64,000 nucleotides of DNA from Verrucomicrobiota bacterium (GTDB lineage: Bacteria; Verrucomicrobiota; Verrucomicrobiia; Limisphaerales; UBA11358), in contig JBEKKZ010000005.1 of the NCBI GenBank assembly GCA_050010435.1, positions 45,544-109,543 of the forward strand. Direction: 5' to 3'. Below the pieces are notes generated by a model. The model was not told the DNA's origin, did not search any database, and was given only the letters and a program-made list of their open reading frames with translations. A program made the position numbers and the translations under genes. Shown here piece by piece: positions 3,509-59,665 of this stretch (position 1 is the first letter of the stretch; every line of letters begins with the position of its first letter).

Positions 3509-5257
3509 ATGAAATTCCGCTGGTCGCTCGCGCCGCCGCAACCGCTCCTTGCCGGTCAACTGGCGGCGCAGCTCAAAATCCCGCCCTTGCTCGCGCAATG
3601 CCTGCTCAATCGCGGTTTCAGCGAACCGTCCGCCATTGAAAATTTTCTCTCGCCGCGCCTCAAGAACCTTGCCGACCCTTTTTTGCTCCCGAACATGGCC
3701 GTCGCCGTCGAGCGATTGCTCCGCGCCCGCGAACAAAATGAATCACTGATCATCTTTGGCGATTATGACGTGGACGGCGTGACCTCCACCGCGCTCCTCG
3801 TCGAAGTTCTGCGTCCGCTTGGCTGGAAGGTGGATTTTTATCTGCCGAACCGCATGGACGAAGGCTACGGCCTCAGCGCCGACGGCGTCGAAAATTGCCT
3901 CAAAAAGTTTCCCGTAAAACTGCTGCTCGCCGTGGACTGCGGCTCGACAGCCGTGGAAACCATCAGCCTTCTGCGTTCGCGCGGCGTGGAGGTCATCGTC
4001 CTCGATCATCACCAGGTTTCTTCGCCCCCACCGGCCGCCGTGGCGTTGGTGAACCCGCAACTCCAAAGTAGCGCAGGCGTCCCGCCTGCACCGGACAGGC
4101 GTGACGCCTGTGCTACTTTCACCGAACTTTGCTCTGTTGGTCTGGCCTTCAAACTGGCTCATGCGCTGGTCAAACGCGGACGCGAAATTGGCTTGCCGGG
4201 CGCGGCGGAATTTGATTTGCGACCACTCCTCGATTTGGTCGCGCTCGGCACGATTGCCGACCTGGTGCCATTGACCGGTGAAAATCGGATTCTCACTTCC
4301 GCCGGTTTGCAACGCCTTAATATGACGCAGCGGCCCGGTTTGCTCGCGCTCAAGCAGGTCGCGCAGTGCCCGCCAATGCTCGGCGCTTACGAAGTGGGTT
4401 TTCAACTGGCCCCGCGCCTGAATGCCGCCGGCCGGCTCGAAACCGCGGAGGAATCGCTGCATTTGCTGCTCGCGCGCGATTTGGCCGGGGCCATGCCCAT
4501 CGCCCAAAGCCTCGACTCGCGAAACCGCGAACGCCAGAAGATTGAACGCGGCATCGTGGAGGAAGTCATCGGGGTCGTTAAATCAAAATTTGATCCGCAG
4601 ACTGATTTCGTCATCGTCGAAGGGCGATTGCTCTGGCACATCGGCGTGGTCGGCATCGTCGCGTCGCGCGTGCTGCAACAATTTTACCGCCCCACGATCA
4701 TTCTCGGCGGTGAAGGCGGTGAATGGCGCGGTTCGGGCCGCAGCATTGCGGGATTTGATCTGGCCGCCGCGTTGCGTGAGTGCGGCGATTTGCTCGTGCG
4801 GCACGGCGGTCACGCGATGGCGGCGGGACTGAGCCTTCAGCCGGACAAAGTGGACGCGCTCCGGCAGCGGTTGAATGAACTGGCGCGCCGCGCGTTGAAG
4901 CCGGAGGATTTGCAACCACCGGTGCGCCTCGATGCGGAAGTGGGTTTGGACGAAATGACTTTGGAATCGCTTGGCGAACTGGCGCGCTTGAAACCGGCCG
5001 GGCAGGGGAACCCGCCGGTGCAATTTTGCGCGCGCAGCGTCACGCACCAACGCCCGCTCCAGCGCATGGGCAAGGAGAAACAGCACGTCAAACTTTGGGT
5101 GACGGACGGCGCCGTGACGCACGAAGCCGTTTGGTGGAATGGCGGCGACGAGTCGTTGCCGGTCGGAAAATTTGATCTGGCGTTCGCGCCGCAGGTGAAT
5201 GAATTCAACGGCCGCCGCACGGTGCAATTAAAAGTGCTCGATTGGCGGGCGGCGTGA
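3509..5257 (+). CDS. recJ: Single-stranded-DNA-specific exonuclease RecJ
   Basis: 582 aa; DHH-family motifs IFGDYDVDGVTS, LLAVDCGS, VIVLDHHQ and DHHA1 motif GGHAMAAG. Carries a 17-codon family-A palindrome (SSAGVPPAPDRRDACAT). Confidence 0.9.
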   Translation: MKFRWSLAPPQPLLAGQLAAQLKIPPLLAQCLLNRGFSEPSAIENFLSPRLKNLADPFLLPNMAVAVERLLRAREQNESLIIFGDYDVDGVTSTALLVEVLRPLGWKVDFYLPNRMDEGYGLSADGVENCLKKFPVKLLLAVDCGSTAVETISLLRSRGVEVIVLDHHQVSSPPPAAVALVNPQLQSSAGVPPAPDRRDACATFTELCSVGLAFKLAHALVKRGREIGLPGAAEFDLRPLLDLVALGTIADLVPLTGENRILTSAGLQRLNMTQRPGLLALKQVAQCPPMLGAYEVGFQLAPRLNAAGRLETAEESLHLLLARDLAGAMPIAQSLDSRNRERQKIERGIVEEVIGVVKSKFDPQTDFVIVEGRLLWHIGVVGIVASRVLQQFYRPTIILGGEGGEWRGSGRSIAGFDLAAALRECGDLLVRHGGHAMAAGLSLQPDKVDALRQRLNELARRALKPEDLQPPVRLDAEVGLDEMTLESLGELARLKPAGQGNPPVQFCARSVTHQRPLQRMGKEKQHVKLWVTDGAVTHEAVWWNGGDESLPVGKFDLAFAPQVNEFNGRRTVQLKVLDWRAA

Positions 5258-5274
5258 AGTTTTTTAGAAATTAC

Positions 5275-5302
5275 TTGCAATTATTTCGGGAATGGCTAAA
5301 TT
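5275..5302 (+). promoter_or_regulatory. Possible sigma70-type promoter for the RRM protein gene
   Basis: TTGCAA (5275-5280), 16-nt spacer, TAAATT (5297-5302), about 135 nt upstream of ATG 5437. Pattern match only. Confidence 0.3.
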
Positions 5303-5436
5303 TGGCCCGTCTGTTGGACAACTTGTCCTTTCGAGGCATGGAAAATCTTCAAGTGAACGTGGTTCAGTGATGATTTGAGACCCGATGGTCGGGAACAGTC
5401 TGGAAAAACGGTTGGTCTTGAACAGCAAATCATTAA

Positions 5437-8360: not shown

Positions 8361-9494
8361 ATGACGGTTCTTGCCCTTGAAACTTCCTGCGACGAAACCA
8401 GCGCCGCCGTCGTGCGCGACGGCAGGGTTTTGTCCAGCGCCGTCTCCTCACAAATCAAGTTGCACGCCGAATACGGCGGCGTCGTGCCGGAACTTGCCGC
8501 CCGCGAACATCTGCGGAATTTGATTCCCGTCGTGCAAACCGCGTTACGCGAGGCGGGGGTGCAGCCGGGACAACTCGACGCTGTTGCTGCCACGCAAGGA
8601 CCGGGTTTGCCGATGGCCTTGCTCGTCGGATTCAAGGCCGCGCAGGCCGTCGCGTTCACCTTGCGGAAACCATTCATGGGCATCAACCATCACGAGGCGC
8701 ATTTGTATTCACCGTGGATTTCTCAACAACCAGTGCCACTCCCTGTAGCCGCGGACGTCAGTCCGCGCACTTTAAGTTCAATGAAAGTCAGCGCCGACTC
8801 ACGTCGGCGGCTACGGTTCAGGGACTCAATGCGCGGAATTTTCTTTGCCGACTTCACCGCCTTTCAACCGAACGTTTCGCTCATCGTAAGCGGCGGGCAC
8901 ACCATGCTCGTGCGGGTGGAATCCGAATTGAAACATCGCGTGCTCGGTTCGACGGTGGACGACGCGGCGGGCGAATGTTTCGACAAAACCGGCAAACTCA
9001 TGGGGCTGCCATATCCCGCCGGACCCGAAATTGACCGGCTGGCGGAGCAGGGGAATCCAAAGGCGTTTGACTTTCCGCGACCTTTGCTTAATGACCCCGG
9101 TGATGACTTCAGCTTCAGTGGACTGAAAACCTCCGTGCGCTATTTTCTGCGTGATAATCCAGCCTTGCTGGACGACGCACAGCGCTTGCGCGATTTGTGT
9201 GCCAGCATCCAGGCGGCCATCGTCGAAGTGCTCGTGAAGAAAACCATCCGCGCCGCGAAACGAAACCACGTCCGTTGTGTAACTGCGTCCGGAGGGGTCA
9301 CCTGCAATCGCGCCTTGCGCCGCGAACTGGCGCGCGCGTGCGAGCGCGAAGGTTTTGCGCTGCAGCTTGCGGAAAAAAGTCTTTGCACGGACAACGCGGC
9401 AATGATTGGGATTCTGGCTGAAAGAAAATTGGCGCAAAATATTCCCGCCTCCGACCTCGACGAGGAAATCAAACCCGGCTGGGTTCTCGCTTGA
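8361..9494 (+). CDS. tsaD: tRNA N6-adenosine threonylcarbamoyltransferase TsaD
   Basis: 377 aa; Kae1/TsaD motifs [45 protein letters not shown]. Contains a family-C palindrome in frame ([23 protein letters not shown]). Confidence 0.9.
8745..8814. repeat. REP-like palindrome, family C, translated inside tsaD
   Basis: GTAGCCGCGGACGTCAGTCCGCGC ... GCGCCGACTCACGTCGGCGGCTAC. It starts on a tsaD codon boundary, and the same family occurs in glnS (35247..35308). Confidence 0.85.
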
Positions 9495-9512: not shown

Positions 9513-12185
9513 ATGGCCGACCGTTTGCCCATTTACGAAATCGAGCGCGACATCATCGCCCGGCTGAAAACCAACCGGCGGCTGATTTTGTCCGCGCCGA
9601 CCGGTTCCGGCAAATCCACGCAGGTGCCGCAAATGCTGCTCCGGCACGGTCTGCTCGGCGACGGGCAGGTAGTGATTCTCCAGCCGCGCAGGCTGGCCAC
9701 GCGGTTGCTAGCGTCCCGCGTGGCGCAGGAACTCGGCGTCCAGCTTGGCAACGAAGTGGGTTATCAAATCCGTTTTGAAAATATCACGTCTCCGCAGACG
9801 AAAATCCGTTTTGTGACGGAAGGCGTCTTGTTGCGGCAGATGATTGACGATCCGAATTTGCACGGCGTTGCCGTCCTCATCTTTGACGAGTTTCACGAAC
9901 GCCATCTTTACGGTGACATCACGCTGGCGCGCGCACTCGACTTGCAGGAGCAGCACCGGCCGGACCTGAATCTCATCGTCATGTCTGCGACGCTCGACGC
10001 GGAGTTATTGGGGGATTACCTCAACCAGGTAGGGCGGGCTGTCCCCAGCCCGCCGCGGCGCGCAGGGGACTGCGCGCCCTACCAATGCTCTGTCTTGTCC
10101 TCCGAAGGCCGCGTATTTCCGGTTGAAATCGAATACGCCGCGCAGCCGGGTTACACGGACAAACGCCCGGTTTGGGAGCAGGCTGCCGAGGCCTTCAGTC
10201 ACTATGTTGGCTCCGGCGGGGAGGGTGACGTGCTGGTGTTCATGCCGGGCGGCTTTGAGATTTCGCAGACCATCGAGGCCATCCGTCATACTTCGGAGTC
10301 GAAAGGTTTTATTTTGCTTCCGTTGTACGGCGAACTTTCCCCCAAAGACCAGGATGCCGCGGTGGCGCGTTACGGCCAGCGCAAAGTTGTCGTTTCCACC
10401 AACGTCGCCGAGACCTCGCTGACCATTGACGGCATCCGGCTGGTGATTGACAGCGGGCTGGCGCGCATTCCGCGTTACGATCCGTATCGGGGCATCAACA
10501 CGCTGCTCATCGAGAAGATCAGTCAATCGTCAGCGGACCAAAGGGCGGGGCGGGCGGGCCGCACCGCGCCGGGCGTTTGCATGCGGCTTTGGTCGCGGGA
10601 GGAACATGGACATCGGCTGGTTCAGGAACTGCCCGAAATCAAACGGCTTGATCTGGCTGAAGTCGTGTTGACGCTCAAAGCCGCCGGGGTCGAGGATTTG
10701 CGGAAATTCCGCTGGCTCGAACCACCGAATGAACAAAGCCTGGTCCATGCAGAGGAATTACTGGAAGACTTGGGCGCAATAAAAAGTAGCGCGGCCGTCC
10801 CGGCTGCCGCAGTTAATGACAATTCCAGTATTCAGCGGAATGCTGAACCCGGCAGGCGGGACGCCTGCGCTACTTCTCAAATCACCCCCATCGGCCGCAA
10901 GATGCTCGCGTTTCCGTTGCACCCGCGTTACTCGTGCATGTTGCTCGCGGCGCAGGAATACGGTTGCGTCCACCAGGCCTGCCTTGTCGCCGCGCTCACG
11001 CAGGGGCGCGATTTGCTGCTGCGCAATGTGGATCGTGACACGCAGGCGCTGCGGGAGGATTTGCTGGGGGAGAAGGCGTCGTCGGATTTCTGGATTCTGA
11101 TGCGCGCGTGGACTTACGCGGCCAAAAACCAATTCCGCCTCGACGCCTGCCGCCGGCTCGGCATCCACGCCGTCACCGCACGGCAGGTCGGGCCATTGTT
11201 TGAACAGTTCCTTCGCATCGCCAAAGACGAAGGTCTCGATGTGAAACCGCGCGAGGTGAAGGACGAGGCCTTGCAGAAGTGTATTCTCATCGGATTTTCC
11301 GACCGCGTGGCGCGGCGGCTGGACCAGGGCACGCTGCGTTGCGAATTGGTCCATAATCGTCGCGGTGTGCTGGCGCGCGAAAGCGCCGTGCAACACAGCC
11401 AGCTTTTCGTGGCTGCCGAAGTCCGCGAAGTCGAGGGCCGGGAAGTGAACACCATTCTTTCCCTTGCCACCGCCATTGAAGCGGACTGGTTGCGCGAACT
11501 TTACCCCGAAGACATGGAATCCGACCTGCACGTCCAGTTCGATTCCACGGCCAAACGGGTGCAAGCCGCGGAGCTGTTGAAGTTTCGCGGCCTGGCGCTG
11601 TCAGCCAAGCGCGTTGAACCGCCGCCGGCCGACATGGCGGCACGATTGCTGGCCGATGAAATTATTGCCGGACGATTGCTGTTGCCGAATTGGGATCACA
11701 GTGTCGAGCAATGGCTGTTGCGGCTGCGCCTGCTTTGCCAGCATTGCCCCGAGCTCCAGCTTCCGCCCATCACCGAAGACGATCGCAAGCACATCATCGG
11801 GCAGCTTTGCCACGGTGCGGTGAGTTACAAGGACATCAAGGAACGCGAAGTGAAACCGGTTGTGGTGTCGTGGCTGTCCGAGGCGCAACGCGGGTTGCTG
11901 GACAAGCACGCGCCGGAGCGGTTGTCGCTGCCGAACGGCCGCACGCCGAAGGTTGCCTACGAGGCGACCGGCTCGCCGCATATTTCGTTGCGCATCCAGG
12001 AACTTTACGACGTGATCCAGACGCCGAAGATTGCGCTGGGGCGCGTGCCGGTGCTGGTTCACATTCTGACTCCGGGCATGAAGCCGATACAAATTACACA
12101 GGACCTTGCCAGTTTCTGGCGCGAGCACTATCCGCGTATCAAATCCGAGTTGCAGCGGAAATATCCGAAACATCTGTGGCGATGA
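9513..12185 (+). CDS. hrpB: ATP-dependent RNA helicase HrpB (DEAH box)
   Basis: 890 aa; motifs I APTGSGKST, II DEFHER, III SAT, VI QRAGRAGR. Length and C-terminal region fit HrpB rather than HrpA (inference). Carries two in-frame palindromes. Confidence 0.9.
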   Translation: MADRLPIYEIERDIIARLKTNRRLILSAPTGSGKSTQVPQMLLRHGLLGDGQVVILQPRRLATRLLASRVAQELGVQLGNEVGYQIRFENITSPQTKIRFVTEGVLLRQMIDDPNLHGVAVLIFDEFHERHLYGDITLARALDLQEQHRPDLNLIVMSATLDAELLGDYLNQVGRAVPSPPRRAGDCAPYQCSVLSSEGRVFPVEIEYAAQPGYTDKRPVWEQAAEAFSHYVGSGGEGDVLVFMPGGFEISQTIEAIRHTSESKGFILLPLYGELSPKDQDAAVARYGQRKVVVSTNVAETSLTIDGIRLVIDSGLARIPRYDPYRGINTLLIEKISQSSADQRAGRAGRTAPGVCMRLWSREEHGHRLVQELPEIKRLDLAEVVLTLKAAGVEDLRKFRWLEPPNEQSLVHAEELLEDLGAIKSSAAVPAAAVNDNSSIQRNAEPGRRDACATSQITPIGRKMLAFPLHPRYSCMLLAAQEYGCVHQACLVAALTQGRDLLLRNVDRDTQALREDLLGEKASSDFWILMRAWTYAAKNQFRLDACRRLGIHAVTARQVGPLFEQFLRIAKDEGLDVKPREVKDEALQKCILIGFSDRVARRLDQGTLRCELVHNRRGVLARESAVQHSQLFVAAEVREVEGREVNTILSLATAIEADWLRELYPEDMESDLHVQFDSTAKRVQAAELLKFRGLALSAKRVEPPPADMAARLLADEIIAGRLLLPNWDHSVEQWLLRLRLLCQHCPELQLPPITEDDRKHIIGQLCHGAVSYKDIKEREVKPVVVSWLSEAQRGLLDKHAPERLSLPNGRTPKVAYEATGSPHISLRIQELYDVIQTPKIALGRVPVLVHILTPGMKPIQITQDLASFWREHYPRIKSELQRKYPKHLWR
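10029..10082. repeat. REP-like palindrome, family B (GTAGGGCGGGC...GCGCCCTAC), translated inside hrpB
   Basis: 54 bp = 18 codons (VGRAVPSPPRRAGDCAPY), codon-aligned with hrpB. Related copies lie at 16864..16919 and 57474..57546. Confidence 0.85.
10785..10874. repeat. REP-like palindrome, family A, translated inside hrpB
   Basis: AGTAGCGCGGCCGTCCCGGCTGCC ... GGCAGGCGGGACGCCTGCGCTACT; 90 bp = 30 codons ([30 protein letters not shown]), codon-aligned. Confidence 0.9.
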
Positions 12186-26660: not shown

Positions 26661-26939
26661 ATGAAACACAATTCGTATTTTGACGGAAAAGTTCAAAGTC
26701 TGGCCGTGAACACATCGGAAGGCCCGGCCACGGTGGGCGTCATCGAGCCGGGCAAATACACCTTCAAGACCGACTCGGAAGAGCACATGCACGTCGTCGC
26801 CGGCACGTTGAAGGCGAAGCTTCCGGGCGCCGCGTGGCAGGCGTTTGCCAGGGGCCAGTCCTTTGTGGTCCCGGCGCATGCCTCTTTTGATGTTGAGGCC
26901 ACGGCCGACGTTGCCTACATCTGCCATTACAAAAAGTAG
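26661..26939 (+). CDS. ppnP: Pyrimidine/purine nucleoside phosphorylase PpnP (DUF1255/YaiE family)
   Basis: MKHNSYFDGKVQSLAVNTSEGPATVGVIEPGKYTFKTDSEEHMHVVAGTLKAKLPG... is typical of PpnP; start trimmed to ATG 26661. Confidence 0.8.
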   Translation: MKHNSYFDGKVQSLAVNTSEGPATVGVIEPGKYTFKTDSEEHMHVVAGTLKAKLPGAAWQAFARGQSFVVPAHASFDVEATADVAYICHYKK

Positions 26940-26942
26940 TTT

Positions 26943-26966
26943 GTAGCGGCGCTCTGTGAGCGCCGG
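26943..26966 (+). repeat. REP singlet, family D, copy D1
   Basis: GTAGCGGCGCTCTGTGAGCGCCGG (GTAG followed by a 7-bp stem). Confidence 0.8.
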
Positions 26967-26978
26967 ATGCTGGCAAGT

Positions 26979-27033
26979 GTGGCACAGACCTCTGGTCTGT
27001 GTTTTGGGTACACAGGCCGGAGGCCTGTGCCAC
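26979..27033. repeat. Palindromic doublet, family K (GTGGCACAG...CTGTGCCAC)
   Basis: GTGGCACAGACCTCTGGTCTGTG ttttgggta CACAGGCCGGAGGCCTGTGCCAC. Confidence 0.8.
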
Positions 27034-27039
27034 GAGAAG

Positions 27040-27129
27040 TCACGTCTTGGCGTTGAAAATGAATTGGCGCCACTCCGGCAACGCGCTCAACTGGTCGAGC
27101 ACAAATTCTTTGAAGAAGTCGTCAGCCAT
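27040..27129 (-). pseudogene. Truncated tfoX-like gene fragment (T1): 17 conserved N-terminal codons, then divergence and a stop
   Basis: Reads MADDFFKEFVLDQLSALPEWRQFIFNAKT*. The first 17 codons match the intact gene at 27733..27787, and the upstream region (27130-27385) parallels 27788-28040. Confidence 0.6.
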
Positions 27130-27302
27130 GATGCAAACGCGGGAGAAGAGTTAACGCAAAGTCGCGAATGGGGAGCACAGCTGCCCCGGCTGCGCCCGCC
27201 TGCGTGGCCGTAGCCACTTCGTCGCGGCGAAGGCCCGGGGCGGGCGCGCTCCCAAATCAAAAACGGGTCACAACCTTGCGGACTTGCGCATCCGCGCACC
27301 TT

Positions 27303-27374
27303 CGGAGCGCCGGCCTCCGGCCCGGCGAGTGTTGAGATTCCAGTAAAAACGCGCCGGATCGGAAATCGGCGCTC
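27303..27374. repeat. Palindromic element, family F, copy F1
   Basis: GGAGCGCCGGCCTCCGGCCCGGCG agtgttgagattccagtaaaaa CGCGCCGGATCGGAAATCGGCGCTCC. Confidence 0.85.
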
Positions 27375-27385
27375 CGCTGTTGCCA

Positions 27386-27787: not shown

Positions 27788-27936
27788 TGAAGCAAAAGAT
27801 TTAACGCAAAGAACGCGACCTGTCACGCCGTAGCCGAAAGCGAAGGAGGAAGGTGCAAAGTGCAAAGCAATGGCGGAAACCCTGGGAGCGCCGCCGTCCC
27901 GGCGGCGTGGGCCGGGCGCATCCGAACACTGCCCCC

Positions 27937-28015
27937 GGAGCGCCGGCCTCCGGCCCGGCGAGTGGCGAGTGTTGAGATTCCAGTAGAAACGCGCCGGATC
28001 GGAAATCGGCGCTCC
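27937..28015. repeat. Palindromic element, family F, copy F2
   Basis: GGAGCGCCGGCCTCCGGCCCGGCG agtggcgagtgttgagattccagtagaaa CGCGCCGGATCGGAAATCGGCGCTCC; near-identical to F1. Confidence 0.85.
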
Positions 28016-28127
28016 GCTGTTGCCATCAAAGTCGGGGCAGTGTGCGGATGCGCCCGCGTGGGCCGATTGCCAAAAAATTACCTTGCCTTTTTCTGGCGTG
28101 TGTCTCATACTTGGGCATTCAGATGTT

Positions 28128-28601: not shown

Positions 28602-28609
28602 CCAAACAT

Positions 28610-28667: not shown

Positions 28668-28689
28668 GATGCAAACGTGGGAGAAGATT

Positions 28690-28722: not shown

Positions 28723-28723
28723 T

Positions 28724-34906: not shown

Positions 34907-36832
34907 TTATACCTTCCGTGCCTCTTTCGCCCAGGTGTCCTTCAATGTAATCGTTCGATTGAAAATGAGGCGTGAGGCGTTGGGCACGAGGCTTGAGTCT
35001 TTGTCCAAAGCAAAATAGGCGAGGCGCTCGAATTGGTAGCGCAGCTCCGGCTTCGCGTCTTTCAGGCTTGGCTCGCATTTTGCCGTCACCACTTCCAGGC
35101 TGTGCGGGTTGAGCGTGGATTTGAAGTCGCCAGCCGCATCCGGCTCCGCAGTGGTGAACAGGCGGTCGTATAATCGGACTTCAGCGTCAATCGCGTGCGC
35201 GGCGCTTACCCAATGGATTGTGCCTTTGACTTTCCTATTCGGGCCCGTAGCCGCAGACGTTAGTCCGCGCACTTCCATTTCTTTGCGCCGACTCACGCCG
35301 GCGGCTACAAATTTGGAATCGAGGTCGGCGGTGCAACGCAGTTCCACAATCTTGCCGGCGGCGTCCTTCACCACTTCGTCGCATTTGATGATGTAGGCGT
35401 ATTTCAACCGGACTTCGCCGCCGGGTTTTAACCGGAAATATTTCGGCGGTGGCACTTCCTTGAAATCGTCCTGCTCAATGAACAGTTCGCGGCTGAACGG
35501 AATTTTCCGTTTGCCCACGTTTTCGTCCTCGGGATTGTTGACGGCGTCCAGTTCCTCGGTTTTGCCTTCGGGATAGTTGGTGAGGACGACCTTGATGGGG
35601 CGCAACACGGCGAGCCGGCGCAGGGCACGCTTGTTCAGGTCTTCGCGGATGGCGTGTTCGAGCACGGCCACGTCGGTCAGGCCGTTGTATTTGGTGATGC
35701 CGATGTTGTAGGCGAACGCGCACAGCGCGGTCGCCGGAACGCCGCGTCGCCGGATGCCGCTGATGGTGGGCATGCGCGGGTCGTCCCAGCCGGTGACGAG
35801 TTTTTCGCTCACAAGCTGCATCAACTTGCGTTTGCTCATCACGGTGTAGGCGAGGCTGAGCCGGGCGAATTCGTATTGATGGGGCAAGGGACGCGGCAGG
35901 TCGAGGTTCTCCAGTATCCAATCGTAAAGCGGGCGATGCACCTCGAATTCCAGCGTGCAAATGCTGTGCGTGATGCCTTCGATATAATCGCTCAGGCAAT
36001 GCGCGAAATCATACATGGGATAAACACACCATTTGACGCCGGTGTGATGATGGTCGGCGTGGCGGATGCGGTAAATGAGGGGGTCGCGCATCCAGACGTT
36101 CGGCGCGGTGACGTCAATCTTTGCGCGGAGCGTGCGCGCGCCGTCGGGGAACTCGCCGTTCTTCATCCGGGTGAACAAGTCGAGGTTTTCCTCGACGCTG
36201 CGGTTGCGGAACGGGCTTTCCTTGGCGTTGCGGCGATATTCGTCGGTTTCGTCCGGTGTCAGGTCGCAGACATAAGCCTTGCTCTTCTTGATGAGCGCGA
36301 CGGCGTATTCGTAAAGCTGGTCGAAATAATCCGAAGCATAAAATGGCTCCAAGGTAGCGCAGCCGTCCCGGCTGCCTTCCTCGGATGCTTGCAGGCGGGA
36401 CGCCTGCGCTACATTTGCAGGCGGGACGCCTGCGCTACCAGAAACTGGTGCCAAATAAAAATCAGGTTTGCCATTGCTCGTAATCGTCTCCGGGGTTTTG
36501 CCTTTGGGTTTCAGGCCGAGCTTGTCATCGGCCCAGCCGGCGATCAGCCAGTTCACGTCCTCGATGATGGAGTCCACGTATTCGACGTCTTCCTTGGTCG
36601 GGTTGGTGTCGTCCATGCGCAGGTTGCAGACGCCGCCGAACTCGTGGGCGATGCCGAAGTTGAGGCAGATGCTTTTGGCGTGGCCGATGTGCAAATAGCC
36701 GTTCGGTTCGGGCGGAAAGCGGGTGTGAATGCGCGGATACTTTTTCTCGGCAACGTGTTTCTCGACGATGTCGCGGATAAAATCAGACGGACCGGCAGGC
36801 GATGGCGGATTACCTGTGTTCGGATTGCTCAT
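34907..36832 (-). CDS. glnS: Glutaminyl-tRNA synthetase
   Basis: 641 aa; HIGH region [19 protein letters not shown]-type TVMSKRKL, C-terminal [13 protein letters not shown]...RLYDRLF as in GlnRS. Two palindromes are translated in frame. Confidence 0.95.
35247..35308. repeat. REP-like palindrome, family C, translated inside glnS
   Basis: GTAGCCGCAGACGTTAGTCCGCGC ... GCGCCGACTCACGCCGGCGGCTAC; encodes (minus strand) [21 protein letters not shown]. Confidence 0.85.
36353..36439. repeat. REP-like palindrome, family A, 1.5 copies, translated inside glnS
   Basis: GGTAGCGCAGCCGTCCCGGCTGCC ... GCAGGCGGGACGCCTGCGCTAC attt GCAGGCGGGACGCCTGCGCTACC; 87 bp = 29 codons ([29 protein letters not shown]). 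Confidence 0.9.
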
Positions 36833-45612: not shown

Positions 45613-45709
45613 TTCCGACAAATAGTTGCAAGAGAATTGGTTCTTTTGGCTGTGCGGCCCGGATTTTGCGTTAACGAGAACGCCAAACACATCTAAAAAT
45701 GCCAAAGGC

Positions 45710-46762
45710 ATGAAACACGTCATCAATATTGCCGGTTACCTGTTGGTACTGGCCGGGTGCAGCTTTGCTGCTTGGTCGGCCTATGTCATCCTCTCCGAAT
45801 CTTATGTTACTGTGGGGGCCGGGGGCACTTCGGGCTTCGCACCCCGACCAAGGATTGTGATCACCAGCCCGGCCACGGACGTGGTTTCACAACCTATGAT
45901 TCAAGTCATCGGCTTCTTTCCAACAGAGATCAAAACTATTACTTACGACATAGCTAATGCCGCAGGAACAAATAAGAGCCAAACCGATCGGCAGTATAAT
46001 GCAATGGTAACCAGCCAGTTTTTTGACCGGGCAAAAGCTGACCGGATGAGGCAAGAAATGTTTAAAAATCGGAATAAACCCTGGAAACCGGGTTCGAAAA
46101 TGGAACAGCCCGAATTTGTATTCACCACCAACTTCTTTCAGTTATATGACATCAATTTAGCCAAAGGAAAAAACTGCATTACCATTCACGTAAGGGACAA
46201 TAGCGGCAGGCAATATTCAACGAGGAGATTCTACACACTGGATTACACCGGCGACAAAATCCCGCCTGTGTTGACGCTGATCTGGCCCACGAATAATTGT
46301 GAAGTGGCGGGCGACGACTTTACGTTAAATGCCCGGGTGGATGATAACAACGCCACCATTAAAACGACCATCAAGGATGCTCAAGGTGGAATCCATGAAG
46401 GATATGCCATAGTTGAGCGCAACGGATTGGTATGGGTTAAAAACCTGCCAGTCCACTCGGGTTCGAATGAAGTGACCGTTGTGGCGACGGATGCTGCCGG
46501 CAATTCCAGCACCAACCGTTTCAATGTTGGCAGATCTTCCGTAACAGTTACCATGCAACCACTCGAACCCGACCAGCTAAACAAGCCGCTCGTCAACGTC
46601 CATGGAACGATAAGCGACGCCTCTTGCGGGGTTAAGGTCAATGGCGCGGAAGCAACAGTCCATTCGAATGGGACATGGGAGGCTCAGAAAGTGCGGGTCA
46701 GCCCAGCCGGCATGGCAGTTTTCAATATGTCAGTCTTCCGCAAACCGAAGGCACAACCATGA
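45710..46762 (+). CDS. Membrane-anchored beta-rich (Ig-like) protein, paralog 1
   Basis: Signal-anchor MKHVINIAGYLLVLAGCSFAAW; shares ITSP..V..P.IQ..G.F, YTLD, PP...WP.N...AG..FTL.A.V.D and VVA.DAAGNSST blocks with the next gene. Confidence 0.7.
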   Translation: MKHVINIAGYLLVLAGCSFAAWSAYVILSESYVTVGAGGTSGFAPRPRIVITSPATDVVSQPMIQVIGFFPTEIKTITYDIANAAGTNKSQTDRQYNAMVTSQFFDRAKADRMRQEMFKNRNKPWKPGSKMEQPEFVFTTNFFQLYDINLAKGKNCITIHVRDNSGRQYSTRRFYTLDYTGDKIPPVLTLIWPTNNCEVAGDDFTLNARVDDNNATIKTTIKDAQGGIHEGYAIVERNGLVWVKNLPVHSGSNEVTVVATDAAGNSSTNRFNVGRSSVTVTMQPLEPDQLNKPLVNVHGTISDASCGVKVNGAEATVHSNGTWEAQKVRVSPAGMAVFNMSVFRKPKAQP

Positions 46763-47817
46763 AATTCCCCAAGTTCAATACTATTGCCATCATCGTTATT
46801 GTGTTGGGTGTTCTCGGAGGAGCCTTTTGGGTCTCAAGAGTTCCTTATCGGGAAGATGAACCAATTGCCGCATCGGCTACGACATCCGGAGCAACACCCG
46901 CTCCAACACCTCCGAAACCAATCTTTGTGGTCATCACCAGCCCCACGAACGGGGTTGTCGGTGCACCCTTGATTCAACTGAAGGGCAATTTTGTAGGCAG
47001 TATTTCCAGCATTACCTATGATGTGCTCAATTCCGAAGGTTGTCGGACCAACCAAAGAAATTATGTCATCAACTGGGGTCCGGGACCGGAAGAGGTTGCT
47101 ACAAATTATTTTGAATGCCCCAACCTGCCGCTTTCCAAAGGAACCAATCAGATCGTTCTGCACACCTTGTTCGACGATGGCCGCAATTTAACCAACCAAG
47201 TTACCTATGTGCTGGATTTTAGTAACTGGACCAACCCGCCCGAAATAAAAATCCTGTGGCCGTCAAACGAAACCAGCATTGCGGGATCAATGTTCACCTT
47301 GCAGGCACAAGTAGCCGACCCGACCACCACCATCCATGTATCGGTGTCCCATCAAAGCACTCCTCCCCTTGAATTCGATGACGCCATCGTTGAGCACAAC
47401 GGTCGGGTGATTGTAAAGGATTTGCCTTTGGAAGATGGAACCAATGTAATCAGTGTAGTCGCCAGGGATGCCGCCGGCAATTCCAGCACCACCAATTTGA
47501 ACATTTACGGAAGCCCCATCAAAATCACCATGAGGCCAGTAAACCCAGACCAGTTACATCAACAATATGCCACCGTCTCAGGAATGATTAGCGATGCCAG
47601 CCTGACGGTATGGGTTAATGGCCAGCAGGCAACGGTTTCCACCAACGGTCAGTGGACGGCAGACAACGTGACTCTCGCGCAAACCCGGACAATACATTCC
47701 TTTAAACCGGGATTCCAACAGTTCGGTTACCGGCCGAATGTCACCTTCTATTTTACGGTTTCGGCGTTTAAAGAAAAGGCAATGGTTGCCACTCAACGAT
47801 TTGAGGCCAGCCCTTAA
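46759..47817 (+). CDS. Membrane-anchored beta-rich (Ig-like) protein, paralog 2
   Basis: ATG 46759 overlaps the previous stop (ATGA). MKFPKFNTIAIIVIVLGVLGGAFW anchor; colinear similarity to paralog 1 (roughly one-third identity by eye). Confidence 0.7.
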   Translation: MKFPKFNTIAIIVIVLGVLGGAFWVSRVPYREDEPIAASATTSGATPAPTPPKPIFVVITSPTNGVVGAPLIQLKGNFVGSISSITYDVLNSEGCRTNQRNYVINWGPGPEEVATNYFECPNLPLSKGTNQIVLHTLFDDGRNLTNQVTYVLDFSNWTNPPEIKILWPSNETSIAGSMFTLQAQVADPTTTIHVSVSHQSTPPLEFDDAIVEHNGRVIVKDLPLEDGTNVISVVARDAAGNSSTTNLNIYGSPIKITMRPVNPDQLHQQYATVSGMISDASLTVWVNGQQATVSTNGQWTADNVTLAQTRTIHSFKPGFQQFGYRPNVTFYFTVSAFKEKAMVATQRFEASP

Positions 47818-48015: not shown

Positions 48016-50955
48016 ATGCACAACTTATTCAACACACTCCGGAAATTTGACCTCGGCGGCGGCAGGCAGGGATCGTTCTATTCCCTGCCCGCGCTGGAAG
48101 AGGCCGGCGTCGGGCCGGTTTCCCAATTGCCCGTCTCCATCCGCCTCGTGCTCGAGTCCGTGCTCCGCAATTGCGACGGCAAAAAGGTCAGCGAACAAAA
48201 CGTGCGCGCGCTGGCGAATTGGAAGCCAACTGAAACCCGCACGGAGGAAATTCCGTTTATCGTCGCGCGCATCGTGCTGCAGGATTTCACCGGCGTGCCG
48301 CTGCTGGTGGATTTGGCGGCGATGCGCTCCGCCGTTCAACGGCTGGGCAAAAATCCGAAAATCATCGAGCCACTCGTGCCGGTGGATCTGGTCGTGGACC
48401 ATTCGGTGCAGGTGGATTTTGCGGGCAGCGTGGATGCGTTTCAGAAGAATCTGGACATGGAATTCCGGCGCAATCGCGAGCGTTATCAATTTCTCAAATG
48501 GGGCATGCAGGCCTTCGACACGTTCAAGGTCGTGCCGCCCGGCATCGGCATCGTCCATCAGGTCAACTTGGAATATCTCGCCAAGGGCGTGCTCAGTAGC
48601 GCAGGCGTCTCGCCTGCACAGAGCAATGGGAATGCAGCCGGGACGGCTGCGCTACTTTATTATCCGGACACGCTGGTTGGCACGGATTCGCACACGACAA
48701 TGATCAATAGCCTCGGCATCGTGGGTTGGGGTGTCGGCGGTATCGAGGCTGAAGCCGGCATGCTGGGCCAGCCGGTTTATTTCCTCACGCCGGACGTCGT
48801 CGGCGTGCATCTCACCGGCGCGTTGCGCGAGGGCGTCACCGCCACCGACCTCGCGCTCACCATCACGGAAATGCTCCGCAAGGCAAAGGTCGTCGGCAAG
48901 TTCGTCGAATTTTTCGGTCCCGGCGCGGCGGCGTTGCCGGTTGTGGACCGCGCGACGATGGCGAACATGGCGCCCGAATACGGCGCGACGATGGGTTTCT
49001 TCCCGATTGATGCCGAGTGCGTAAATTATCTCCGCGCCACGGGCCGCAGCGAAGAGCTTTGCCTGACCTACGAAAATTATTACCGCGCGCAGGGTTTGTT
49101 CGGCATTCCCAGGAAGGGCGACATCGCCTACTCGCAGGAACTGGAACTCAACCTTGGCATGGTGGTTCCCAGCGTGGCCGGCCCGAAGCGCCCGCAGGAT
49201 CGCATCGAACTGCCGAAGTTGAGAGACGCGTTCATGAAGGCGATGACGCGTTCGGTCATGGACAATGGCTTCGGCAAGCGCTTCGAGGAGCTGTATGTAA
49301 CCGCGCGGGTCAACACGGCGCGGGAGGCCCATCCGCCCATTAATCACAGCTATGGCCATCGCAAGCTGGGCGTGGATCCCAGCGAATCCGAGATGCGCGA
49401 CCAGCACCCCGCGCCCCACACCTCGGAGCATGTGCCTTCCACGACGTTTCGCGGGGTGCAGTCCGAAATTCGCCACGGCAGCGTGCTCATCGCGGCCATC
49501 ACCAGTTGTACGAACACGTCGAATCCCAGCGTCATGCTCGCCGCCGGTTTGCTGGCGAAGAAGGCCGTGGAATGCGGACTCAGCGTGAATCCCGTCGTCA
49601 AAACCTCGCTCGCCCCCGGCTCGCGTGTGGTGAGCGATTACCTGGACCGGACCGGCCTGCAATTCTACCTCGATCAGCTCGGCTTCAACCTCGTGGGTTA
49701 CGGCTGCACGACTTGCATCGGCAACTCCGGTCCCCTGCCGGCCACGGTCGAAGACGCGATCAACAAATACGACCTGGTCGTGGCCTCCGTCCTTTCGGGC
49801 AACCGCAACTTCGAGGCGCGCGTGCATCAGAGCATCAAGGCGAACTTCCTCATGTCGCCACCGCTCGTTGTCGCCTTTGCGCTCGCGGGCCGCGTGGACA
49901 TTGACCTGAGCCGCGAGCCGATCGGCACGGGCAAGAATGGCCGGCCGGTTTATCTTCGCGACCTCTGGCCAAGCCTGCGTGAAATCCGCGACCTCATGCA
50001 AACCGCGTTGCAGCCGGAAGTTTATCGCAGGCTGTTCAAGGATTTTGCGGCGCAGAATCCCAAGTGGAACGAAATCCCCTCGTTCACCGGCAATGTTTTC
50101 GTATGGGACCGCCGGTCCACTTACATACAGGAACCGCCGTTCTTCGAGAAGTTCCTGCTGCAAGCCGGGGAAATTCGTGAAATCAAGGGTGCGCGAGCGC
50201 TGGCCATTTTTGGCGACAGCGTGACGACCGACCACATTTCACCCGCTGGATCCATCAAGAAGACATCGCCGGCTGGAAAATATCTCATCGAAAACGGTGT
50301 CGAACCGGCGGACTTCAACAGCTACGGCTCGCGGCGGGGCAACGACCGGGTGATGACGCGCGGCACGTTCGCCAATGTCCGCATCAAAAACCTCATGGTG
50401 CCTGGAGTTGAAGGTGGGGTGACCAGATTTTTTGGTAGCCGCGTTCGTGAGAATGCGGATGCCACAGGTGAAAAGCCCGGCGCTTTCACAAGCGCCGCTA
50501 CGGGGGAGGTGATGCCGATTTACGACGCCGCCATGAAATATCGGACTGCCGGCGTTCCGCTGGTGGTGATTGCCGGACAGGAGTACGGCACCGGTTCATC
50601 CCGTGACTGGGCTGCGAAAGGCACGAACCTGCTCGGCGTGAAGGCCGTCGTGGCGCAGAGCTTCGAGCGCATCCACCGCAGCAACCTTGTCGGCCTGGGC
50701 GTGCTGCCGCTGCAATTCAAGGAAGGCACGACGGCACAGACGCTCAACCTCGATGGCACGGAGACCTACGACATCGTCGGCCTTGGCGCGAATTTGAAAC
50801 CGCAGCAGGATTTGACGCTGAAAATCACGCGCCAGGACGGCGGCGTGGAAGATGTGCCCGTGCGTTGCCGGATTGATACGCCGATTGAAATTGATTACTA
50901 CCAGCATGGCGGCATTTTGCCCTACGTGCTGCGGCAGTTGGTGGCGAAGGCGTGA
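48016..50955 (+). CDS. acnA: Aconitate hydratase A
   Basis: 979 aa; [33 protein letters not shown] Fe-S ligand regions, C-terminal swivel domain ([19 protein letters not shown]). Two palindromes are translated in frame. Confidence 0.95.
48595..48656. repeat. REP-like palindrome, family A, translated inside acnA
   Basis: AGTAGCGCAGGCGTCTCGCCTGCA ... TGCAGCCGGGACGGCTGCGCTACT; codon-aligned, reads [21 protein letters not shown]. Confidence 0.9.
50435..50501. repeat. REP-like palindrome, family D-like, translated inside acnA
   Basis: GTAGCCGCGTTCGTGAGAATGCGG ... CCGGCGCTTTCACAAGCGCCGCTAC; reads [23 protein letters not shown] between the conserved GVTRF and [13 protein letters not shown]. Confidence 0.8.
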
Positions 50956-50961: not shown

Positions 50962-51028
50962 GGAACGCCGGCCTCCGGCACGGCGCGATGTTATAGCCGA
51001 AACAAGCCGTGCCAAAGGCCGGCGTTCC
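50962..51028. repeat. Palindromic element, family F, copy F3
   Basis: GGAACGCCGGCCTCCGGCACGGC gcgatgttatagccgaaacaa GCCGTGCCAAAGGCCGGCGTTCC. Confidence 0.85.
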
Positions 51029-51032: not shown

Positions 51033-51791
51033 ATGAAACCGCGAACCAAGCGCGAATATCTGTGCCAACTTGTTGAGGGGAAGAATAAAGCGTTCCGTCC
51101 GCTTACAGATGAAGAGAAGGCGCTGGGCTTCCATGGCTGGCATGAGCGCGGTTATCTGCCGCATTGCGATTATCCTGGTCTCGTTCAATTCGTCACGTTT
51201 CGCCTTGCCGATTCCATGCCAGCCTCACGTCGCGGTGAGTGGGAACATTTGCTCAAGATTGAAGACGATCGGGAGAAGCGCACGAGACTGGAGGAATATC
51301 TTGATCGCGGAGTTGGTGAATGTCATTTGCGCGATCCGCGAATCGCCAAAATTGCCGAAGACGCCATGCTTCATTTTCATAACGAACGCTACGAACTGCT
51401 CGCCTGGTGCGTGATGCTAAATCACGTCCATGTTCTTGTTCATGTCTGGCAGACGCCGCTATGGAAGACGGTGCGAAGTTGGAAACACTTCGTCCAAACA
51501 CAGGCGAATCGATTGCTTGCGGAACACCGGCTTCCAGCACGGCGCGGTGGTGAAAGGAACAGCAACGAGCCGGGCCGGAGGCCGGCGCTCCAATGGCAGC
51601 GGGAATACGGGGATACATTCATGCGGGATGGAGATCAGGAAAGGAAAGCCGTTCGTTACATCGAAAACAATCCGGTGACGGCAAGACTGTGTCGCGTGGA
51701 CAAGGAGTGGCCTTTCAGCAGCGCAAGGTTTCGGGATGAATTTCATCGGCTGTTGATTCCCGCCGGAGCGCCGATCTCCGAATCGGCGTGA
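51033..51791 (+). CDS. REP-associated tyrosine transposase (RAYT; IS200/IS605 Y1 HUH family)
   Basis: YLPHCDYPGLVQFVTFRLADSMP, HUH motif NHVHVLVH, QWQREYGDTFMRD, catalytic Tyr in AVRYIENNPVTARL, WPFSS. ATG 51033 preferred over GTG 51009. Confidence 0.85.
   Translation: MKPRTKREYLCQLVEGKNKAFRPLTDEEKALGFHGWHERGYLPHCDYPGLVQFVTFRLADSMPASRRGEWEHLLKIEDDREKRTRLEEYLDRGVGECHLRDPRIAKIAEDAMLHFHNERYELLAWCVMLNHVHVLVHVWQTPLWKTVRSWKHFVQTQANRLLAEHRLPARRGGERNSNEPGRRPALQWQREYGDTFMRDGDQERKAVRYIENNPVTARLCRVDKEWPFSSARFRDEFHRLLIPAGAPISESA
51521..51591. repeat. Palindromic element, family F, copy F4, translated inside the RAYT gene
   Basis: GGAACACCGGCTTCCAGCACGGCG ... GCCGGGCCGGAGGCCGGCGCTCC; encodes about 24 aa (EHRLPARRGGERNSNEPGRRPAL) between ANRLL and QWQREY. 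Confidence 0.8.
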
Positions 51792-51835
51792 GAATCCGGC
51801 GCCAGCCAACGCGCCGAATCGGAGTGCGGCGCTCC
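51765..51835. repeat. Palindromic element, family F, copy F5
   Basis: GGAGCGCCGATCTCCGAATCGGCG tgagaatccggcgccagccaac GCGCCGAATCGGAGTGCGGCGCTCC. The RAYT stop codon TGA (51789-51791) is in the loop. Confidence 0.85.
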
Positions 51836-57753: not shown

Positions 57754-57765
57754 CACAGCGACATT

Positions 57766-57828
57766 CCGGCAGGGCGCTGCATTATTTGGTTTGCGGCTCT
57801 CTGCCGAGGAGCCGCTACGCCGCAAAAT
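57766..57828 (-). repeat. Family G doublet, copy G5 (degenerate)
   Basis: agcgacattCCGGCAGGGCGCTGCATTAT ... TGCGGCTCTCTGCCGAGGAGCCGCTAC aligns with G3. Confidence 0.7.
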
Positions 57829-57874
57829 AAAATTCTTCGTTCCTTCGTTCCTTTGTGGTTAATCTTTCCGCCAC

Positions 57875-59665
57875 ATGAAGTGGTCCCAAGCATTTATTCC
57901 GACCCTGCGCGAAGCTCCGGCTGACGCGGAAATCCTTTCCCATAAACTCCTGCTGCGCGCCGGGCTTATCCGCAAGCTCGCGGGCGGGGTTTACACCTTT
58001 CTGCCGCTCGGTTTGCGCGCGCTGCGCAAGGTGGAGCAAATCGTCCGCGAGGAAATGGACCGTGCGGGCGCGCTCGAACTGCTCATGCCCGCCCTTCAGC
58101 CGTCGGAAATCTGGCAGCAAAGCGGCCGGTACGAAACCGCGGGCAACGTGTTGTATAAATTGAAGGACAGCGGAAACCGCGAATGGGTTCTCAGCCCGAC
58201 GGCCGAGGAGGTCATTACCACCACCGCCGCCAGCGAGATTAATTCCTACCGGCAGTTGCCAAAGAATTTTTACCAGATCAGCGTCAAGTTCCGGGACGAA
58301 ATCCGTCCGCGCTTCGGCCTGATGCGCGCCCGTGAGTTCATCATGAAGGACGCCTACAGTTTTGACGTGAGCGACGAGGCGGCGCAGGTGTGCTATCAGA
58401 AAATGTACGACGCCTATGCGCGCATCTTCGCCCGGTGCGGACTGAAGGCGTTTCCGGTCGAGGCCGACACCGGCGTCATCGGCGGGAAATTTTCGCATGA
58501 ATTCATGGTTCCGGCGGAAACCGGCGAGAATGAGGTGGTTTACTGTGAGGCCTGCGGTTACGCGGCGAACATCGAGAAGGCCACCAGCGGCATTCCCAAA
58601 ACCGCCGCGCGTGAAGTCGGCGCGGCGATTGAAAAGTTTGCCACGCCCGGCGTTGTCACCATCGAAGCGCTGAGCAAGGCGCCTTACGGCGTTCCGGCCA
58701 ATCGTCAGATCAAAACGCTCGTTTACATCGCAGATAGCAAACCAGTCATCATTTTGATCCGCGGCGACGACCAGTTGAACGAAGCCAAGCTCGCGGGTAT
58801 CATCGGCACCGCGGTGTTCCGTCCAGCCACACCGGAAGAATGCGTGGCCACGCTCGGCGCGCATCCGGGAAGTCTCGGTGCGATTGCGAGCGCGCTGAAA
58901 AGTAGCGCAGGCGTCCCGCCTGCAAACTCCGAGGGCAGGCCAGAGGCCCGCGCTACTTTGCAAATATTCGCCGACGAGCGTTTGCGCGGCGCGAATGACA
59001 TGACCACCGGTGCGAATGAGGACGGTTTCCATTTCCGCAATGTCTCCATCGAACGCGACATCAAGGGGACGCAATGGTTCGATTTAAGAACTGTGACTGC
59101 CGGTGAACCCTGCGCGAAATGCAGCAAACCGCTGAAAATCCGCCGCGCCATCGAGGTCGGCCACGTTTTCAAGCTCGGCACGAAATACAGCGAGAAGCTG
59201 GGCGCAACATTTCTGGACGAGGCCGGCACGCGCAAGCCCGCCGTCATGGGTTGCTATGGCATTGGCGTTACACGAACCCTGCAAGCGGTCATCGAGCAGT
59301 GCAACGACAAGGACGGCATCATCTGGCCGTTAAGTATCGCGCCGTATCAGGTTTGCATCACACCGTTGGGCGTGGCGCCGGACAGCGCGGTGATGAAACT
59401 GGCGGAGAAAATTTACGCGGAACTGACCGCACGCGGCGTGGAAGTGATTCTGGATGACCGCGATGAACGTCCCGGCGTAAAATTCAAGGACGCGGACCTG
59501 GTGGGCTTTCCGATTCGCGTGGGCATCGGCGAGAAATCGCTGGCGAAGGGCGAAGTAGAACTCAAGCCGCGCGGTGGCGCGCTGCAACCCGTCAAGGCCG
59601 ACGAAGCGGTGGATGCCGTGATAAAATTGGTGGAAGCAAGCAATGGCGGTCTGCGAACGGCATGA
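57875..59665 (+). CDS. proS: Prolyl-tRNA synthetase (bacterial type with INS editing domain)
   Basis: 596 aa; class II motif 2 FRDEIRPRFGLMRAREFIMKDAYSF, motif 3 GCYGIGVTR, C-terminal anticodon-binding domain. One palindrome is translated in frame. Confidence 0.95.
   Translation: MKWSQAFIPTLREAPADAEILSHKLLLRAGLIRKLAGGVYTFLPLGLRALRKVEQIVREEMDRAGALELLMPALQPSEIWQQSGRYETAGNVLYKLKDSGNREWVLSPTAEEVITTTAASEINSYRQLPKNFYQISVKFRDEIRPRFGLMRAREFIMKDAYSFDVSDEAAQVCYQKMYDAYARIFARCGLKAFPVEADTGVIGGKFSHEFMVPAETGENEVVYCEACGYAANIEKATSGIPKTAAREVGAAIEKFATPGVVTIEALSKAPYGVPANRQIKTLVYIADSKPVIILIRGDDQLNEAKLAGIIGTAVFRPATPEECVATLGAHPGSLGAIASALKSSAGVPPANSEGRPEARATLQIFADERLRGANDMTTGANEDGFHFRNVSIERDIKGTQWFDLRTVTAGEPCAKCSKPLKIRRAIEVGHVFKLGTKYSEKLGATFLDEAGTRKPAVMGCYGIGVTRTLQAVIEQCNDKDGIIWPLSIAPYQVCITPLGVAPDSAVMKLAEKIYAELTARGVEVILDDRDERPGVKFKDADLVGFPIRVGIGEKSLAKGEVELKPRGGALQPVKADEAVDAVIKLVEASNGGLRTA
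58901..58957. repeat. REP-like palindrome, family A, translated inside proS
   Basis: AGTAGCGCAGGCGTCCCGCCTGCA ... GGCCCGCGCTACT; 57 bp = 19 codons ([19 protein letters not shown]), codon-aligned. Confidence 0.9.

Follow-up and report, generated by a model that had tools for sequence, protein, structure and literature searches.

We analysed a stretch of 64,000 nt from a Verrucomicrobiota bacterium (contig JBEKKZ010000005.1), hereafter the window, in which a short palindromic repeat that we call family A occurs five times, each time inside a gene: recJ, hrpB, glnS, acnA and proS. Family A is a repetitive extragenic palindromic (REP) element of the GTAG type, and its inverted doublets are REPIN-like. 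Our preferred explanation, to which we assign a probability of roughly 0.78, is that the five copies are REP doublets that landed in housekeeping genes, survived in permissive loops and are read through. A preliminary description of the repeat had reported five copies, all of them intragenic, and no intergenic copy in the 64 kb, and both observations hold. What it missed is that the element belongs to a known class, the GTAG REPs, of which intragenic copies have been documented in Verrucomicrobia, and that the five sites are hot spots shared with other repeat families.

The family-A unit is 22 nt long and joins a GTAG head, one C and a stem of 7 bp, which is rich in G+C and closed by a 3-nt loop. 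Searching the window for the half-site GTAGCGCAGGCGTCCCGCCTGC with at most three mismatches gave ten matches, where 100 shuffles led us to expect 0. Allowing up to five mismatches added an 11th, the degenerate right arm of the proS copy (4 mismatches), and still no intergenic copy. The half-sites build five inverted doublets, at positions 4068-4116, 10786-10873, 36354-36438, 48596-48655 and 58902-58956. A single unit folds as single-stranded DNA (ssDNA) with -8.3 kcal/mol, and the doublets fold as one long hairpin with -22 to -36 kcal/mol (z = -4.5 to -8.3). Over 48 distinct half-sites from the window and from other genomes, the stem positions pair in 95.5% of the cells versus 84.2% in shuffles, and double-sided compensatory changes number 29, where 4.5 +/- 1.8 would be expected and none of 500 shuffles gets that far; if the stem is slid to other registers the pairing signal collapses. 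The GTAG head is present in all 11 half-sites of the window, and across the 48 distinct variants its G1 and its G4 each reach 90% conservation or more. The inverted-doublet arrangement was seen in the five elements of the window and in 68 pairs when the 117 loci listed from other genomes are added. As to copy number, there are five elements in the 64 kb here and several loci per genome in many of the metagenome-assembled genomes (MAGs) listed. The flanks of the junctions have no direct repeats, as expected of the single-strand mechanism of Y1/HUH enzymes, and the AAA...TTT belongs to the palindrome itself. Regarding the extragenic location, a REP feature that is typical but, given published exceptions in Opitutus terrae, not strictly defining, none of the five family-A elements of the window has it.

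Several other identities were considered and rejected. A miniature inverted-repeat element derived from a DDE insertion sequence is ruled out by the junctions without duplication and by the arms, which are self-folding hairpins with a GTAG head. Membership of the Rickettsia palindromic elements (RPEs) is ruled out too, given the GTAG head, the different sequence and the hosts, which are Verrucomicrobiota and other phyla. Nor does this appear to be an intein, an intron or another excised element: the frame is kept and stops are absent in the intragenic elements of four families, and elements of 49-88 nt are too short and have no match to such families. An assembly artefact was discarded because the same arrangements recur across many independent assemblies.

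All five sites are gaps in the alignments to solved homologues, and it is from these sequence alignments to solved structures that the loop positions were taken. The gene recJ (3509..5257, plus strand; DHH, DHHA1 and RecJ_OB domains in Pfam) carries its doublet at 4068..4116, with an exact left arm and a right arm of three mismatches that include a compensatory A-T pair. This doublet encodes SSAGVPPAPDRRDACAT and gives an ssDNA hairpin of -26 kcal/mol (z = -7.7), and at this point the RecJ of the window is 11 residues longer than that of D. radiodurans (5f54). In hrpB (9513..12185, plus strand; DEAD, Helicase_C, HA2 and HrpB_C domains in Pfam) the doublet at 10786..10873 has a 44-nt spacer and encodes 30 residues, and the alignment to DEAH helicase structures is interrupted there by about 33 extra residues. 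The other three open reading frames (ORFs) were identified by a Pfam or PDB match. The gene of the glutaminyl-tRNA synthetase GlnRS, glnS (34907..36832, minus strand), has an element of three half-sites at 36354..36438, namely 36354-36375 (+), 36391-36412 (-) and 36417-36438 (-), which encodes 29 residues within a 59-residue segment that solved GlnRS structures lack. The aconitase gene acnA (48016..50955, plus strand) has a doublet at 48596..48655 that encodes 21 residues, with the right arm in an AGGTPAL-type frame, and it corresponds to a 16-residue gap versus human IRP1 (2b3x). Finally, the doublet of the prolyl-tRNA synthetase gene proS (57875..59665, plus strand), at 58902..58956 and with the degenerate right arm, encodes 19 residues, and the enzyme (ProRS) has about 21 extra residues there compared with that of P. 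aeruginosa. An AlphaFold2 model of ProRS built with 42 close homologues had a mean pLDDT (predicted local distance difference test) of 38 and was unusable, and no structural claim is built on it.

The elements are read in a preferred frame. The preliminary description had noted that four copies share the reading SSAGVPPA...RRDACAT, and this is accurate: the five left arms are read as xGT AGC GCA GGC..., giving peptides of the type (S/G)SAGVPPA (with the variants SSAAVPAA in hrpB and SSAGVSPA in acnA), while four of the five right arms are in the RRDACAT frame and that of acnA gives AAGTAALL. One forward frame is closed by the TAG of GTAG, as had also been pointed out. None of the window's intragenic elements, be they of family A, X, Y or R, contains a stop or breaks the frame. 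Between the SAGVPPA and the VAQASRL frames the counts are 5:1 in the window and 14:5 in other genomes, that is, 19:6 in total (p = 0.015, for 25 forward half-sites whose copies are not all independent). Half-sites in reverse orientation favour the AGGTPAL frame in other genomes (9 versus 4 and 4), and the RRDACAT frame is found four times in the window. The favoured frames encode small uncharged residues, which fits selection on the inserted peptide. The shared frame can thus be attributed to the avoidance of the stop codon together with the bias towards the frame of small uncharged residues, and our explanation accounts for it without any attraction to coding DNA. The survivorship filtering proposed in the preliminary description is supported by elements that are in frame, free of stops, placed at gaps relative to solved homologues and biased to one frame in 19 of 25 cases.

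In order to place the five copies in a wider context, we used a scan with one genome per species, in which the near-exact 22-mer appears in at least 117 stretches of more than 60 genomes from about 10 phyla. The hosts include Verrucomicrobiota, Planctomycetota (also Brocadiaceae), Pseudomonadota (Gallionellaceae, Thiobacillus), Cyanobacteria, Acidobacteriota, Armatimonadota, Hydrogenedentota, Victivallales and others, and the contigs are often long. Copies were assigned to coding or intergenic DNA by a home-made rule based on ORFs and GC frame, which gives a coding fraction of about 0.83. Among the matches listed, to which these counts refer, Verrucomicrobiota outside Opitutae have 20 intragenic copies, 14 intergenic and 6 at a gene edge; Opitutae have 6, 6 and 3; the other phyla have 5, 47 and 6; and the window itself has 5, 0 and 0. 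Verrucomicrobiota are thus far more permissive of intragenic copies than other phyla (p = 1e-6). Nevertheless, their 20 of 34 (59%) is below the coding fraction of 0.83 (p = 8e-4), and so are the other phyla, where around 10% are intragenic and 47 of 52 intergenic. Pfam confirmed ten of ten intragenic calls outside the window as real genes with domain matches (GcvP, LeuRS, ValRS, UvrA, Hsp70, PurM, AroE, a P-type ATPase, a radical SAM enzyme and a DUF1015 protein). The five intragenic copies out of five in the window are the random expectation at a coding density of about 85% (0.85^5 = 0.44), and a close relative has an intergenic copy (L124, 19932-19953). A preference for coding DNA is not supported, because the window fits random placement and the other genomes fall below their coding fraction; a relaxed exclusion combined with survivorship is supported. 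The preliminary description had asked whether a census would find family A mostly intergenic and without a frame bias; over the 117 loci listed, copies outside Verrucomicrobiota are mostly intergenic, and a frame bias is seen, 14:5 in other genomes and 19:6 with the window included.

Regarding the close relatives, each of the five sites is a hypervariable loop, and proteins 80-96% identical to those of the window carry there other REP families or arrays of heptamers; at recJ, proS and glnS we also saw an allele that is short or free of REPs. The presence/absence comparison that the preliminary description had proposed thus reveals polymorphic sites, occupied by other REP families, by heptamer arrays or by short and empty alleles. 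The ProRS site illustrates it best. Among 120 homologues (84-96% identical), 25 have family A, 21 a Z-like family read as GGTGFQPV...HRLEACAT, 21 family R (ERRPPARL...AGAP), 9 a GTAGGG family and 19 short alleles, including the REP-free AATVKSRDISIF, and other types are also present. At the DNA level, distinct REP doublets lie at the same few proS codons in seven relatives, and the allele of L118 is empty. A neighbour-joining tree of ProRS with the insert masked requires at least 45 changes of state. Two alleles appear incomplete or mixed: P0088 is a chimera whose left half is of type R and whose right half resembles Z, and P0045 has the ACAT tail alone.

The other four sites behave in the same way. 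The acnA site of L018 holds family A like that of the window; L120 has a GGAG-headed doublet there and L118 an (AAATCGG)n array. Site 1 of GlnRS has 110 distinct sequences in 120 homologues, with at least six REP families plus heptamer arrays, and a second glnS insert, of family X, is present in 4 of the 120 homologues and absent in 116. The family-A loop of hrpB has 109 distinct variants in 120 homologues, the other hrpB loop is equally variable, and family A occurs in two different phases at its own loop, hrpB site 2. For recJ, where the relatives were obtained from a metagenome scan with RecJ, those at 60-69% identity have a loop of 2-3 residues and closer ones have (CTCAACC)n, (AAATCGG)n or (CCGAACT)n arrays or other REP families. 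The heptamer arrays are located at about 1365-1400 of L118, at the recJ site of L128, L134 and L170, and in GlnRS and HrpB homologues; they are translated, for instance as STLNPQPST, KSEIGNRKSEI or PNSELRTPNSE, and the same heptamer recurs in different proteins.

REP elements are non-autonomous, and they are thought to be moved by REP-associated tyrosine transposases (RAYTs), enzymes of the HUH/Y1 or IS200/IS605 type that recognise the head and the hairpin on ssDNA. From this established knowledge, a RAYT would move the family-A units by the same means. Several REP families would have landed inside housekeeping genes of this verrucomicrobial lineage, whose relatives are labelled Limisphaerales or Verrucomicrobiia, and the copies seen today would be the survivors, those with a length that keeps the frame, no stop codon and a position in loops that solved homologues lack. 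Their read-through would add 16-35 residues rich in Ser, Ala, Gly, Pro and Val, and the copies of the window would be the current occupants of five permissive loops that in relatives hold other families, heptamer arrays or, at some sites, nothing. That these segments are insertions is indicated by the gaps at all five sites, the 2-3 residue loop of distant RecJ relatives, the empty proS allele of L118 and the family-X insert of glnS, which 116 homologues lack.

The window does contain a RAYT-like Y1/HUH transposase gene, at 51033..51791 on the plus strand and directly downstream of acnA, with the motifs MLNHVHVLV (HUH) and RYIENNPV (tyrosine). It matches the Pseudomonas fluorescens RAYT by tblastn (E = 1e-5), with query sequences taken from the supplement of PMC3733652, and the NCBIfam model NF047646 'REP-associated tyrosine transposase' (E = 5.5e-16), with 58.8 bits, below the curated cut-off of 80. 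The ORF had no Pfam match at E <= 0.001 and no PDB sequence match, and two regular-expression scans of six-frame translations for RAYT motifs found none, with patterns that were too narrow, before tblastn found the gene. Doublets of family R flank it (50962-51028 and 51765-51835) and a third one is in frame within it (51521-51591). L121 has an orthologue in the corresponding position (1202-1951), and L118 and L120 lack the gene. This gene gives the window the context of a REP system, and any role of it for family A is only putative. A second type of RAYT was noticed in L123 (20800-21500), 45% identical to Rhodopirellula RB11751. It has inverted GTAGGAGACGACGTGAGGAGTCTC repeats on its flanks, together with a direct duplication that copies about 55 nt from the start of the neighbouring gene.

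Some observations weigh against our preferred explanation. In the window we found no RAYT with family-A flanks, the RAYT-like gene there being bordered by family R. The only direct link comes from L063 (Opitutus sp.), in which the N-terminus of a homologous RAYT (45% identity) starts about 40 nt from a family-A doublet, although this is a single flank of a 1.2-kb contig that ends inside the gene. We infer both the mobility of the elements and their translation, and our census classifier is home-made and validated for 10 intragenic calls only, so that the intergenic calls are somewhat uncertain. Moreover, the REP arms are at least as conserved as the host gene, which the model does not predict. 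The acnA doublet has 0 differences in 60 positions versus L018, against 155 in 2361 elsewhere in the gene (93.6% identity; p = 0.03), and the left arm of proS has 0 in 22 among the window, L122 and L123, against a divergence of 14-18% in the remainder of the gene (p = 0.02 and 0.06). These small tests hint at a constraint on the DNA or at homogenisation. Such conservation above the surrounding coding DNA is what one would expect if the hairpins were useful as DNA or mRNA structures, or the peptide itself were useful, for example in translation pausing between domains, in mRNA stability or in the binding of gyrase or of nucleoid proteins. The compensatory changes that maintain the stems and the position of the sites at domain junctions or loops point in the same direction. 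Nevertheless, covariation is equally expected if the transposase requires a hairpin, the conservation tests are small (p = 0.02-0.06), and close relatives have unrelated sequences at the same sites, or nothing at proS in some of them, with completely different peptides from family to family. Therefore, we consider a selected function unlikely. Less credit still is due to the idea, advanced in the preliminary description, that family A is inserted or retained in coding sequence above chance. The five intragenic copies of family A compared with none of nine for families B, C and Z would agree with it, but the chance probability of 0.44, the intragenic fractions of the matches listed, which at 59% in Verrucomicrobiota and about 10% in other phyla stay under the coding fraction, and the intergenic copy of L124 leave it hardly tenable.

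A further difficulty is that at least six families and the heptamer arrays converge on the same few codons, which a pure selection filter does not obviously explain. Instead of selection, the insertion itself might be directed to these sites, so that new doublets integrate at, or replace, a resident REP, a hairpin or a nearby short target and the families swap in place, via a RAYT or by template switching between hairpins. This is a possibility that we take seriously, although we judge it clearly the less probable one. It would account for the many families held by the five sites and by hrpB site 1 in proteins 80-96% identical, for L120, whose proS and acnA share one GGAG-headed family at the sites that family A occupies in the window, for the chimeric P0088 allele, for the two phases of family A at hrpB site 2 and for the 45 or more changes of state on the ProRS tree. 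The 'orthoswitch' of Nunvar et al. 2013, in which REP classes switch around orthologous RAYT genes and new variants are suggested to replace old ones, is a precedent for such replacement. The 5' flank of the half-sites is also A-rich at -3 to -1 in Verrucomicrobiota (48, 57 and 38% A), and has T at -1 in 56% of the cases in other phyla, over the 117 loci listed. However, this signal is weak and only possibly linked to an insertion target; a strict target motif, sought in the flanks of the half-sites, did not emerge beyond this weak A-rich flank. In addition, the junctions are shifted by several nucleotides between families (the element of L121 starts around 4 codons earlier), recombination between strains could interleave the alleles without many separate events, and the mechanism is only a proposal. 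In its strongest form, which we put forward only as a speculation, the loops of RecJ, HrpB, GlnRS, aconitase and ProRS, and probably also those of TsaD, YbeY, GcvP and UvrA, would be dedicated landing pads where site-directed, RAYT-dependent exchange of doublets from different REP families and of heptamer arrays generates hypervariable translated cassettes within enzymes that are highly conserved elsewhere, and the presence of the 22-mer in about 10 phyla would imply a horizontal spread of the REP/RAYT system. The hot spots may arise from site-directed exchange or only from the saturation of a few permissive loops.

In-frame translated GTAG REPs are already known in Verrucomicrobia. Di Nocera et al. 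2013 (BMC Genomics 14:522, PMC3733652) sorted REPs into the GTAG and CGTC super-families and described intragenic REPs in several species, above all in Opitutus terrae and often in genes related to replication, repair and tRNA; the supplement lists around 70 intragenic GTAG REPs of O. terrae, including those in HrpA and UvrA. The closest to family A in that material is GTAG-19 of O. terrae, from the same phylum, with a GT(A/G)G head, a short G+C hairpin, the core GCGTCCCGC and inverted doublets in frame in housekeeping genes (HrpA, UvrA, DnaE2, ligase). The preferred frame is also the same, GTGVPPV...HGRDARAT there and SAGVPPA...RRDACAT in family A, and in the GTAG-19 table we counted around 19 GTGVPPV against 3 VARASRP and 6 WHGRPAR. 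The two differ in the stem, ACGGGCG versus GCAGGCG, and in the head, mostly GTGG versus GTAG. Family A may be one of the 24 families of that study. Neither different families at one orthologous site nor a distribution across phyla was reported there.

Compared with the REP/REPIN-RAYT systems of Escherichia, Pseudomonas and Stenotrophomonas (Nunvar 2010, 2013; Bertels and Rainey 2011; Ton-Hoang 2012; Messing 2012), we find the same GTAG head, imperfect palindrome and inverted doublets folding as one hairpin, as well as a RAYT-type gene flanked by REP doublets, several families per genome and a turnover of classes between relatives. However, those REPs are nearly all extragenic and are described as lineage-specific and vertically inherited, whereas the family-A 22-mer is in about 10 phyla and most of its Verrucomicrobiota copies, among the matches listed, are presumably translated. 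In a limited literature search we came across no account of essential genes in which the same codons repeatedly exchange REP families and heptamer arrays, and none of a single REP sequence common to many phyla. What is added here to the known picture is that the five loops behave as hot spots and that family A is spread over many phyla.

The cyanobacterial short tandemly repeated repetitive sequences (STRRs), which Mazel and co-workers reportedly described in 1990, are said to be tandem repeats of heptanucleotides. The (CTCAACC)n, (AAATCGG)n and (CCGAACT)n arrays are likewise short tandem 7-mers at several loci, a resemblance only, since the sequences and the phylum are others and STRRs are mostly intergenic, whereas the arrays in the loops of the relatives are translated. 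The RPEs, in turn, were reportedly found by Ogata and co-workers (in 2000 and 2002) in frame in many unrelated protein genes and read as selfish DNA. Like family A they are palindromic, in frame and read through as extra surface segments, surviving where tolerated, but RPE-1 is longer (about 100-150 bp) and the hosts have reduced intracellular genomes. We know of no link between RPEs and a RAYT. RPE-4 and RPE-6 are assigned to the CGTC class, not to GTAG, in PMC3733652.

Our results depart from the usual picture of REPs in three ways, as the doublets of this lineage are presumably translated as a routine in essential enzymes, the loops are used again by many families and an identical REP is found in many phyla. 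If this re-use were site-directed, it would offer a natural system for studying the target choice of RAYTs and the tolerance of proteins to recurrent insertions. Such segments inflate the divergence of marker genes such as those of the tRNA synthetases, and in Verrucomicrobiota MAGs they can lead alignments, phylogenies and gene calls astray.

The window has further repeat families. Families B (GTAGCGGCGCTCTGTGAGCGCCG), C (GTAGCGGCGGTCGGCAGACCGCCG) and Z (GTGGCACAGACCTCTGGTCTGTG) are intergenic. Family X (GTAGCCGCGGACGTCAGTCCGCG) is in frame in tsaD (8745-8814) and glnS (35247-35308), and a related doublet is in frame in acnA (50435-50501). Family Y (GTAGGGCGGGCTGTCCCCAGCCCGCC, beginning with GTAGGGCGGGC...) is in frame in hrpB at 10029-10082 and encodes VGRAVPSPPRRAGDCAPYQ, and family R (GGAGCGCCGGCCTCCGGCCCGGC), with a GGAG head, is around and inside the RAYT-like gene. 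The preliminary description had contrasted family A with families that are almost all intergenic. This stands for B, C and Z (0 of 9 intragenic versus 5 of 5; Fisher p = 5e-4, with small numbers) and fails for X, Y and R, which also have intragenic doublets in frame. Stop codons account for part of the contrast, since family B leaves a single forward frame open, but not for all of it, family C being as open as A. Units close to family A but with a GGAG head, such as GGAGCGCGGGCGTCCCGCCTGCG, were also found inside acnA (L120 2251-2365, and other loci), and in them the change of T to G removes the TAG and opens the third reading frame.

Three other regions of the window are worth recording. At 26900-28900 and 33370-33850 there are repeated short genes, whose 5' ends recur at 27074, 27732, 28612 and 33467; the ORF 27386-28147 has a TfoX_N domain, and arrays of B, Z and R, as well as longer repeats of 74-99 nt, lie between the members of the cluster. 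Between 44571 and 48017 about 3.4 kb have a low G+C content (around 0.51) and contain two paralogous ORFs, 45626-46762 and 46675-47817 (Ig-like, Glucodextran_B); this stretch is missing from the otherwise collinear L018, which holds 260 nt there. Finally, a direct repeat of 189 nt, 85% identical, is found at 59667-59855, just past the stop of proS, and at 62938-63126, over the 3' end of the ORF 62940-63929 (-). In relatives a gene of 329 residues lies directly 3' of proS, which suggests a rearrangement or an insertion in the window.

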